The notes under the pieces: model-generated | Database searches by the model: none | Told to the model about the DNA's origin: nothing | Seen by the model: only the letters and a program-made list of their open reading frames with translations | Position numbers and translations under genes: made by a program | Shown here: positions 1-5,439 of the stretch, one piece after another | Layout of the letters: every line of letters starts with the position of its first letter | How positions within the stretch are numbered: the first letter of the stretch is position 1 | From: Escherichia coli | Lineage (GTDB): Bacteria; Pseudomonadota; Gammaproteobacteria; Enterobacterales; Enterobacteriaceae | DNA: 5,439 nucleotides | Reading direction: 5' to 3' (one strand) | NCBI RefSeq assembly: GCF_003334785.1 | Contig: NZ_QOWV01000044.1

Positions 1-60
1 GAATGGCCCTCCAACCGTGTTGACGAACTCCTGCCATGGAACGTAGTACTCACCAATAAA

Positions 61-92
61 TAAGCGTCAATACGGTGTTCCGTTGACGCTTA
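61..92 (-). terminator. Stem-loop, possible intrinsic terminator for leftward (minus-strand) transcription
   Basis: Seen in sequence: a perfect 10-bp inverted repeat, TAAGCGTCAA (61-70) and TTGACGCTTA (83-92), around a 12-nt loop that can itself form a 3-bp inner stem (CGG 73-75 with CCG 80-82). On the minus-strand transcript the stem is followed by UUUAUUGG (complement of 53-60). On the plus strand the following bases are not U-rich. It lies about 140 nt downstream of the 234-425 minus-strand gene. Confidence 0.35.
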
Positions 93-233
93 CTATAAAC
101 GTTTCCTGGGATGCGCTGAACACGGCATACAGTGAACACCCGGAGTGGTTTTCTGGGCTTGTCTCCGGGGATGAGAATTAATAAATGGATTATGCTGCCA
201 TCAGGCAGTGTGATTGCCGGCAGGGATTTCGTT

Positions 234-1526: not shown

Positions 1527-3305
<1,779 letters not shown>

Positions 3306-3730
3306 TACCGGACCATTTTTTTATTCCGGACTTTCACCATACTGTTATTATCAGGTTTATTTAATTCACCATGAACCCATAATTTCACGATATTCAGATG
3401 CGTCTTTTTTATCTGAACCACTCTCCGCACTCCTGGCACTGGAATGTCAGATTCAGACCCCAGGAAGCCGTATATACTGGCAATGATACCTGTCATATAA
3501 TCATTACCTGTAATCAGTCAGGTTTTCATTTAACCAGGGACGGACAACGGCTGTTCACTGAGCGTTATATCAGAAACCTTAATGAGCTGTTACCTGTTCT
3601 GAAACGGCGGTGGGATGTGACGCCGGCAATTATCCGCGCGGTGGAATACCTTTCCCGGGTCCCGGTATCACACTGATGTTCTTTCCGTAACTGTTAATCA
3701 TGATTTAATACAGCAACACCGAATCTGCCG

Positions 3731-4804
3731 ATGACTTCTGAAGTGAAACTGAAAACCGGTGGTGACCCCCGGTCATTACCGGATTATGCTGCCCTGCGCG
3801 ATGAAATCAGCAAACTGACCCACCCGGCACGCCCGGATGTGGACTGGCGTTACGTGGAAACGCTCTGCCTGCGTCTGTATGAACACAATGGCGTGGAATT
3901 ACAGACGGCATCCTGGTACACCATCGCCCGGATGCATACAACAGGGTTAAGTGGCCTGAATGAAGGGCTGGCTCTGATTGTGGCGCTGACCCGGCATCAC
4001 TGGTCAGTGATGTGGCCGCTGAATACACACGCCCGGCTGGAAATTATTACCGGTCTGTTCAACCGTCTGCAAAAAACGCTCCGGGCCATGCCACCGGATG
4101 ACCGTGACAACCTGCCCCTGCTGTATCAGACCGAAACATTCCTGAAGGAACTGAGTGACACACTGGCCCGGTACGAACTTAAACAGAGCAGTAAAGTGGC
4201 TTTACCGGAAGCCATGGTGAAGGGATATATCACCCGTCTGGAAAATCAGCCGGTGCAGGGCGAAGCGTCGTCTCCGGTAACCCTTCCGGCTCAGGCACTC
4301 CGGTCTGATGCTCGGGACGTACAGGAACATCAGCCCCTGCCGCACTCCCGTCTGGTGTATGTTGTTTCTGAAACAAAAGCAGGGCCCACACCCTCCCTTC
4401 AAAAATCCCCTCCCACGTTTCTGAAACCGTTTGTGACTGGTGTCTGTGCGGCATTGCTGGCGGTCAGCGTGGCCATTCCGGGATGGCAGTATCTGACACA
4501 GCCATCACCGGCGGAGCAGCAACTCAGGGCGCTGCTGACACCACCACCGGATGTGCTTTCAGCAGACCAGATGACACAGCTCAGCAGAACACCCTCACTG
4601 TTAAATCATGCGTCAGAGTGGATAACCCTTTCCGGTCAGCAGATAACGCGACTGACAGAATTACCCCCGGCATATAACCTGCAGCGCAGTGCGCAGTTGC
4701 TGCAGCAACTGATGGTACTTTTCCCCGACAATCGTAAGCGTAAACTGACCGCCGTATGTAGCCATCAGACGAGAATTGGTAACTTAGACGCCCATCTGAT
4801 ATAG
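3731..4804 (+). CDS. Type VI secretion-associated ImpA_N-domain membrane protein (VasL/TssA-like); 3' end apparently replaced by IS66-family terminal sequence
   Basis: ORF of 357 aa. The N-terminal roughly 130 aa (GGDPRSLPDYAALRDEISKLTHPARPDVDWRYVETLCLRLYEHNGVELQTASWYTIARMHTTGLSGLNEGLALIVALTRHHWSVMWP) fit the ImpA N-terminal domain pattern of TssA/VasL proteins, as recalled. A single predicted transmembrane segment FLKPFVTGVCAALLAVSVAIPGW lies at about 4418-4486, consistent with VasL-like topology. The last 23 codons (from about 4733) are encoded by sequence starting with GTAAGCG, which I interpret as the IS66-family terminal inverted repeat, so the native C-terminus is probably lost. No strong Shine-Dalgarno sequence precedes the ATG. 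Confidence 0.55.
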   Translation: MTSEVKLKTGGDPRSLPDYAALRDEISKLTHPARPDVDWRYVETLCLRLYEHNGVELQTASWYTIARMHTTGLSGLNEGLALIVALTRHHWSVMWPLNTHARLEIITGLFNRLQKTLRAMPPDDRDNLPLLYQTETFLKELSDTLARYELKQSSKVALPEAMVKGYITRLENQPVQGEASSPVTLPAQALRSDARDVQEHQPLPHSRLVYVVSETKAGPTPSLQKSPPTFLKPFVTGVCAALLAVSVAIPGWQYLTQPSPAEQQLRALLTPPPDVLSADQMTQLSRTPSLLNHASEWITLSGQQITRLTELPPAYNLQRSAQLLQQLMVLFPDNRKRKLTAVCSHQTRIGNLDAHLI

Positions 4805-4818
4805 ACGGACATCTAAGT

Positions 4819-5244
4819 ATGGAATTACAGGACTGGCGAAAAGAACCTCGTAAAAACTATTCGAATGAATTCAAACTTCGTATGGTGGAACTGGCATCAC
4901 AACCTGGAGCTTGTGTTGCACAGATTGCACGTGAAAATGGCGTCAATGATAATGTTATTTTCAAATGGCTCAGGCTCTGGCAGAACGAAGGGCGTGTTTC
5001 GCGGCGTCTTCCGGTAACGACCTCTTCTGACACTGGCGTTGAATTATTACCTGTAGAAATAACGCCGGATGAGCAGAAAGAACCTGTGGCGGCCATTGCG
5101 CCGTCTTTATCCACTTCCACTCAGACCAGAGTCAGTGCCAGTTCCTGCAAGGTGGAATTCCGTCACGGTAACATGACGCTGGAAAATCCATCGCCAGAGC
5201 TGCTCACAGTGTTGATCCGTGAACTGACCGGGAGGGGAAGATGA
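4819..5244 (+). CDS. tnpA: IS66-family accessory protein OrfA (TnpA), 141 aa
   Basis: Translation MELQDWRKEPRKNYSNEFKLRMVELASQPGACVAQIARENGVNDNVIFKWLRLWQNEGR... matches my recollection of IS66/ISEc8-type orf1 proteins, which carry a helix-turn-helix-like N-terminal region. The stop overlaps the orfB start. Confidence 0.85.
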   Translation: MELQDWRKEPRKNYSNEFKLRMVELASQPGACVAQIARENGVNDNVIFKWLRLWQNEGRVSRRLPVTTSSDTGVELLPVEITPDEQKEPVAAIAPSLSTSTQTRVSASSCKVEFRHGNMTLENPSPELLTVLIRELTGRGR

Positions 5245-5439
5245 TCTCACTCCCATCAGGTACCCGTATCTGGCTCGTTGCCGGCGTTACCGATATGCGT
5301 AAATCCTTCAACGGACTGGGAGAACAGGTACAACATGTGCTGAATGATAATCCCTTCTCCGGTCACCCGGAGCAACACCTCCGCCCCTTCCGGGGTATCC
5401 TGCAGGCGGATGCGTTCACAGGTTACGACAGGTTGTTCA
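5241..5439 (+). CDS. tnpB: IS66-family OrfB (TnpB) N-terminus, partial at window edge; apparently fused in-frame to a transposase (TnpC)-like segment
   Basis: Translation MISLPSGTRIWLVAGVTDMRKSFNGLGEQVQHVLNDNPFSGH matches the IS66 orfB N-terminus as I recall it. The following residues PEQHLRPFRGILQADAFTGYDRLF do not match the expected continuation (LF.FRGRRGD...), and instead resemble the G.LQ.DGY.GY motif region of IS66 DDE transposases. The ORF is open to the window end. Confidence 0.6.
   Translation, partial: MISLPSGTRIWLVAGVTDMRKSFNGLGEQVQHVLNDNPFSGHPEQHLRPFRGILQADAFTGYDRLF

Follow-up and report, generated by a model that had tools for sequence, protein, structure and literature searches.

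Background

The insertion sequence IS66 makes 8-bp target duplications (as quoted in PMC6778807). ISEc23 is a 2,532-bp member of the IS66 family with the gene order tnpA-tnpB-tnpC, found for instance in Escherichia coli strains HS and TW10722. Its full TnpC (537 aa) comprises LZ_Tnp_IS66 (residues 60-130), zf-IS66 (138-182), DDE_Tnp_IS66 (196-486) and the IS66 C-terminal element. All three ORFs are reportedly required for transposition of the IS66-family element IS679, as Han et al. are said to have found in 2001. Shortened transposases can also take on a regulatory role: the Tn5 Inh protein and the Drosophila P-element KP repressor are inhibitors derived from a transposase by truncation or internal deletion. 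The papers found to mention ISEc23 contain nothing on deletion derivatives of this element.

Here we describe a copy of ISEc23 in a 5,439-nt stretch of E. coli DNA (contig NZ_QOWV01000044.1 of assembly GCF_003334785.1), referred to below as the window. Positions 4734-5439 of the window make up, with high confidence, the left two-thirds of an ISEc23 derivative, 1,326 bp long, that lies in an ImpA_N/VasL gene, carries a single internal deletion of 1,206 bp and is non-autonomous. Compared with the ISEc23 copies of HS and TW10722, the two arms that remain (left, 634 bp; right, 692 bp) are 100% identical, and the copy of TW10722 has the same GTAAGCG repeats, the same 8-bp duplication, an identical tnpA and the same insertion site. 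In contrast to these intact elements, the deleted copy lacks a complete TnpB and the N-terminal 317 residues of TnpC, and encodes a 262-aa chimera.

Methods

Megablast was used to compare window positions 4700-5439 with 5,426 complete E. coli genomes. A 100-nt junction probe was searched, with a coverage of at least 80%, in the same genomes and in 72,556 PLSDB plasmids, and a 30-nt exact junction string was searched in the genome_contigs, metagenome_contigs and viral_contigs collections. The junction was located in further assemblies by exact-protein look-ups. Protein products were compared with Pfam and NCBIfam models. Conservation in TnpC was assessed in an alignment of 71 sequences, made up of the ISEc23 TnpC and 70 homologues (33-48% identity) from a search of 1.84 billion representative proteins. 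The assignment to ISEc23 rests on copies so labelled in RefSeq, such as those of E. coli HS and TW10722.

Results

Structure of the element

The features of the element are listed in Table 1. Window positions 4734-5367 are 100% identical to the left end of ISEc23, comprising the left inverted repeat (IRL), an intact tnpA and tnpB codons 1-42. Blast identity to ISEc23 copies begins at 4733, one base before the IRL; this base, the last of the duplicated target, matches as well. Membership in the IS66 family is indicated by the terminal repeats (5'-GTAAGCG), the 8-bp duplication, tnpA and the 100% identity to RefSeq-labelled ISEc23 copies. The tnpA product scored 83 bits against NCBIfam NF047595 (IS66 TnpA; cut-off 74), and the tnpA stop codon is overlapped by the tnpB ATG (ATGA). 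The tnpB remnant covers positions 2-35 of the 101 in the Pfam TnpB_IS66 model; with 42 of 116 codons left, it scored 29.9 bits against NF033819 (positions 1-33 of the 90 in the model), short of that model's cut-off of 50. A promoter and terminator scan of window positions 4600-5439 found none.

Table 1 Features of the deleted ISEc23 copy (window coordinates unless a contig is named)
Feature	Position	Strand	Basis or remark
Target-site duplication, left copy, 8 bp, CGACAATC	4726-4733		Flank comparison; in interrupted ImpA_N/VasL gene
IRL of ISEc23, begins GTAAGCG	4734-4760	+	21 of 27 positions match reverse complement of the right inverted repeat (IRR) in L003
tnpA, intact, 141 aa, identical to WP_000422741.1	4819-5244	+	ORF list; annotation of identical copies
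Native tnpB ribosome-binding site GGAGG (5231-5235) and ATG (5241-5243)	5231-5243	+	Read from sequence
tnpB 5' remnant, codons 1-42 and first base of codon 43	5241-5367	+	100% to intact ISEc23
Deletion junction, CACC microhomology	5364-5367		Three-way alignment
tnpC 3' part from codon 318, cut by window end	5368-5439	+	Identity to intact ISEc23; Pfam
Derivative, second site	L007 9494-10819; L008-L010 9207-10532; L011 1818-3143; L012 1281-2606; L013 28-1353

The deletion junction

Positions 5241-5438 are translated as MISLPSGTRIWLVAGVTDMRKSFNGLGEQVQHVLNDNPFSGH followed by PEQHLRPFRGILQADAFTGYDRLF, with the join between the two. The first 42 residues are identical to TnpB WP_000624722.1 of ISEc23, and the remainder within the window is identical to TnpC residues 318-341. 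The initial annotation had thus correctly recognised an IS66 OrfB start of about 42 codons and a tnpC-like, non-OrfB continuation past about 5365. At the nucleotide level, window positions 4733-5367 matched intact ISEc23 with 100% identity over 635 nt, and positions 5364-5439 matched tnpC of the same ISEc23, 1,206 bp further on, with 100% identity over 76 nt (E about 1e-35). Such a match of both arms lies far beyond chance expectation.

On the TW10722 chromosome (L002), window positions 1566-5367 correspond to 2867-6668 and positions 5364-5439 to 7871-7946, at 100% identity. The three-way alignment placed the part missing relative to the intact 2,532-bp ISEc23 of TW10722 at L002 6669-7874, which is 1,206 bp, or 402 codons, and exceeds the roughly 0.9 kb proposed at first. 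The switch between the parental sequences is clean and occurs inside a 4-bp microhomology, CACC, which is present at both deletion endpoints of the intact element and falls within the interval (5362-5368) where the breakpoint had been predicted. Megablast returned thousands of IS66-family matches, each of which either ended at query position 668 (window 5367) or was split in two. In the numbering of intact ISEc23, positions 635-1840 are absent, so that tnpB codons 43-116, the tnpB-tnpC spacer and tnpC codons 1-317 are lost. Because 1,206 equals 3 x 402 and tnpB and tnpC share a reading frame in ISEc23, tnpB codon 42/43 is joined to tnpC codon 317/318 in frame.

Occurrence of the junction in other assemblies

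The window ends 72 nt past the junction, so that the intact right end can be read only from further assemblies of this clone. Since IS copies are repeats, the join could in principle be an assembly or chimeric-read artefact, and both the position of the window end and the rarity of the junction would fit that explanation. The 100-nt probe had no match in the 5,426 complete E. coli genomes or in the 72,556 PLSDB plasmids, and the 30-nt string was not found in any of the three large contig collections. By the same token, an intact element collinear with the window through this region was found in none of these genomes and plasmids, and the absence of the junction from them indicates that the deletion allele is rare. 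The artefact explanation is nevertheless contradicted by the presence of the same junction in several independent assemblies from different submitters and pipelines, at least three of them in addition to the window's own: GCA_012211965.1 (L003), GCA_012531155.1 (L004) and GCA_002190295.1 (L005). The exact 262-aa fusion protein is encoded on 12 contigs, including a 4.4-Mb contig and a unitig-based Logan contig seen in 8 samples, and a 592-aa ORF that lies upstream in the window is encoded on nine contigs from independent assemblies. A 4-bp overlap cannot give rise to a false k-mer join, which means that reads must cross the junction, and contigs L003 and L007-L012 cross the whole derivative into unique flanks on both sides. 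An artefact is therefore largely refuted and hardly credible.

The whole window is 100% identical to positions 541-5979 of L003, in which the ORF extends to its stop codon; L003 5781-6569 encodes exactly the 262-aa protein that was predicted from the window and TW10722. Taken alone, the window would also be compatible with recombination between two separate IS66-family copies, as part of a large chromosomal deletion or inversion, since the right end of the element lies outside it and a second IS66-like right end is present at window positions 1-93. L003 refutes this explanation, which we regard as having next to no probability: past the junction, positions 5904-8188 are 100% collinear with L002 7871-10155 and comprise tnpC from codon 317, the IRR, the matching duplication CGACAATC and, after it, the second half of this VasL gene. 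This continuity identifies the event as an internal deletion of one IS, as had been suspected from the window.

The interrupted VasL gene

The element interrupts a gene for an ImpA_N/VasL-domain (type VI secretion-associated) protein at window positions 3731-4804; the interrupted ORF runs 71 nt into the IRL before reaching a stop codon. The remaining 115-aa part of VasL is located past the IRR in both L003 and TW10722, where the 8-bp duplication recurs directly after the IRR. TW10722 has an intact, annotated ISEc23 (tnpA, tnpB and a 537-aa tnpC) in the same gene context. Among the matches listed for the IS-truncated 357-aa VasL protein, which include the draft and complete genomes of TW10722 and three metagenome assemblies, full tnpA-tnpB-tnpC was present in 10 of 10. 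We conclude from these ten matches that the intact IS is ancestral at this site and the deletion derived.

Two further features of the window were observed. At positions 1-93 lies the right end of a second IS66-family element, with the last tnpC codons (ending in EWPSNRVDELLPWNVVLTNK and a stop codon) and the IRR, which ends with GACGCTTAC at 93. This right end is 95.7% identical to that of ISEc23, and in L003 the element reaches 540 bp further upstream. At positions 1566-1574 (junction GAG, 1572-1574), 2,113 bp of TW10722 and related genomes are missing, with loss of most of an HlyC-type acyltransferase gene and of a frameshifted GIY-YIG/T5orf172 nuclease gene. This second deletion places the acyltransferase ATG (1527) in frame with a NERD/UvrD-helicase gene, giving a 592-aa ORF (1527-3305) in place of the usual 581 aa. 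Its junction was found in none of the 5,426 complete genomes and in all contigs of the window's clone.

The predicted fusion protein

The junction had been suggested to encode a chimeric protein, and an in-frame ORF for such a product is present: the predicted fusion has 262 aa, with TnpB residues 1-42 followed by TnpC residues 318-537. It retains DDE_Tnp_IS66 model positions 116-283 of 284 and DDE_Tnp_IS66_C, whereas LZ_Tnp_IS66, zf-IS66 and DDE positions 1-115 are gone. In the alignment of 71 diverse TnpC sequences, D268 was invariant, and D332, E463 and the four zinc-finger cysteines were at least 90% conserved. D268, the first catalytic Asp, and all four zinc-finger cysteines fall in the deleted part; D332, the second catalytic Asp (codon at window positions 5409-5411), and E463 are kept. 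A search for solved structures gave none matching TnpC or TnpB by sequence.

The fusion scored 222.8 bits against NF033517 (model positions 193-385 of 387), above the cut-off of 180, which probably explains why it is named 'IS66 family transposase' in its source; the 262-aa protein is already present in NCBI nr under this generic name. With the leucine zipper, the zinc finger and the first DDE Asp absent from the fusion, and with no complete TnpB expected to be made, the product is predicted to be unable to work as a transposase and the element to be unable to transpose alone. The earlier proposal of a non-autonomous IS therefore agrees with the loss of complete TnpB and of the first 317 residues of TnpC, although the loss of mobility itself is read from sequence. 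The native tnpB GGAGG and ATG are intact, and for this reason the fusion ORF is probably still translated by coupling to tnpA.

The same derivative at a second locus

Exact-protein look-ups also placed the 262-aa protein at a different locus, on contigs L007-L013, where the 1,326-bp derivative is 100% identical (Table 1). This second site is a ggt pseudogene flanked on one side by a phosphotriesterase-related gene near cobU and on the other by an ISL3 remnant, and the duplication is GCTTGAGC. The contigs represent one clone, with 0-1 mismatches over 12-15 kb. In E. coli HS and some 30 further complete genomes, exactly this position holds an intact 2,532-bp ISEc23; the second-site junction matched 34 complete genomes, 31 of them as one continuous match and three as two separated pieces. 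GPEC206-621, which has the intact element and is the nearest second-site relative, is 100% identical to the clone over the left flank and IS arm; on the right side, a single mismatch and a single gap separate the two over 4.6 kb.

TW10722 is not among the 31 complete genomes with a continuous match and lacks an IS at the second site. Among the matches listed, the TW10722 chromosome is the only contig above 1 Mb with the IS-truncated VasL protein. Occupation of both sites in one genome found no support in the 31 complete second-site genomes or in the VasL protein matches listed.

An active non-autonomous element mobilised in trans would leave behind a pattern of this kind: the copies at the two loci are 100% identical, have both ends intact and are flanked by different 8-bp duplications, CGACAATC in one case and GCTTGAGC in the other. 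Both sites are, however, occupied by the parent in related strains. Intact ISEc23 with the same position and duplication is present at the VasL site in TW10722 and many drafts, and likewise at the ggt-pseudogene site in HS, GPEC206-621 and some 30 further complete genomes. The duplications at the two sites are accordingly attributed to the intact parent, and the pattern is not explained by the derivative simply having transposed. Contigs L003 and L007-L012 moreover traverse the derivative, which suggests that these genomes hold no helper copy. A MITE-like element would have copies at sites never occupied by the parent, and the two sites found are both occupied by intact elements in related strains. 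Mobilisation in trans is thus an unlikely origin of the two copies.

Two explanations are left: either the same deletion arose in parallel, or the deleted allele was transferred into another resident copy by recombination through the IS arms of 634 and 692 bp. Between the ISEc23 copies of HS and TW10722, IS positions 207 and 1327 are the only differences. The second of these falls in the deleted part, and the TnpA protein of GPEC206-621 is the same as that of TW10722, with no marker difference in the left arm; these SNPs are therefore uninformative on in-situ deletion versus an imported allele.

Other deletion derivatives

Two other types of deletion derivative of ISEc23-like elements were found. 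In plasmid pQ65-B (L001 3002-4945) and at least six further plasmids, 588 bp are lost within tnpC, with a 7-bp overlap at the junction. In strain AVS0969 (L026 1501-3481) and related chromosomes, 346 bp are lost from the 3' end of tnpB to the 5' end of tnpC, with a 4-bp overlap, and the derivative is joined to a 93%-identical IS682-like right part. Like the element of the window, both types have internal deletions, short junction overlaps and intact left ends, but their breakpoints differ and neither joins tnpB codon 42 to tnpC codon 318. In the NCBI annotation, the tnpC remnants of both types appear as partial genes for IS66-family transposases. In a more distant IS66 element recovered from the representative-protein search, a 418-aa protein (P0046) is an in-frame fusion of TnpB residues 1 to about 87 with TnpC from about residue 202 to the end. 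P0046 indicates that tnpB'-'tnpC fusions by internal deletion recur in the IS66 family with varying breakpoints, and together these cases show internal deletion and in-frame fusion to be routine decay in this family.

Discussion

The element in the window is genuine, and an ordinary example of a known IS, ISEc23, in defective form. We propose that one 1,206-bp deletion occurred between two CACC tetranucleotides of ISEc23, likely by replication slippage or another form of microhomology-mediated illegitimate recombination. The deletion left the two terminal inverted repeats and the 8-bp target duplication in place, along with tnpA and the start of tnpB translation, and fused the remnants in frame into the 262-aa ORF. 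For the resulting derivative to move, a co-resident intact ISEc23 would have to provide TnpB and TnpC in trans, and it would be an immobile fossil in genomes where it is the sole copy.

The deletion endpoints share only a 4-bp direct repeat. The IS holds 88 repeated 8-mers, 22 repeated 9-mers and 4 repeated 10-mers, which would be better slippage substrates than CACC. The duplex energy between the inner flanks is -12.6 kcal/mol, compared with a mean of -9.1 (sd 2.6) for random pairs of 40-mers from the IS, about 10% of which are as low. Neither repeat counts nor inner-flank complementarity revealed a deletion hot-spot feature in ISEc23.

The presence of the same deletion in a second resident ISEc23 copy of another clone means that one random deletion event alone is an insufficient explanation. 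Selection could account for the allele in two copies if the fusion protein were itself functional, for instance by inhibiting ISEc23 transposition in a trans-dominant manner. The in-frame fusion with its native ribosome-binding site and start codon, the retention of the C-terminal half of the catalytic domain and of the IS66 C-terminal element, and the presence of the same allele in two IS copies would be in keeping with such a role. The product may be likened to Tn5 Inh and KP, which are also encoded by an element or its deletion derivative and lack the N-terminal DNA-binding part while keeping C-terminal regions; inhibition is known for those proteins, whereas the case here consists of an intact ribosome-binding site, ATG and open frame. 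Against an inhibitor, the common frame of tnpB and tnpC means that one third of deletions would be in frame by chance; the 100% identity of all copies leaves no selection signal; and many other, different TnpC wrecks exist. We consider an inhibitory function very unlikely and retain the reading of the element as a defective ISEc23 copy.

Conclusions

The window contains a non-autonomous ISEc23 remnant whose 262-aa product is named 'IS66 family transposase' despite the loss of a catalytic residue and of the DNA-binding regions, and the copy should be flagged as defective. The two private junctions, the 1,206-bp deletion in the IS and the 2,113-bp deletion upstream, are useful clone-specific markers for a TW10722-like lineage. 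Beyond annotation, the significance of the defective copy is very small. The only feature of some interest is the route by which a single exact deletion allele reached two ISEc23 copies in two unrelated-looking clones. If recurrence, and not allele transfer through the IS arms, were the explanation, it would follow that ISEc23 has a directed or strongly favoured internal deletion that yields a TnpB'-'TnpC fusion, possibly selected as a self-made regulator of transposition; we consider this improbable.
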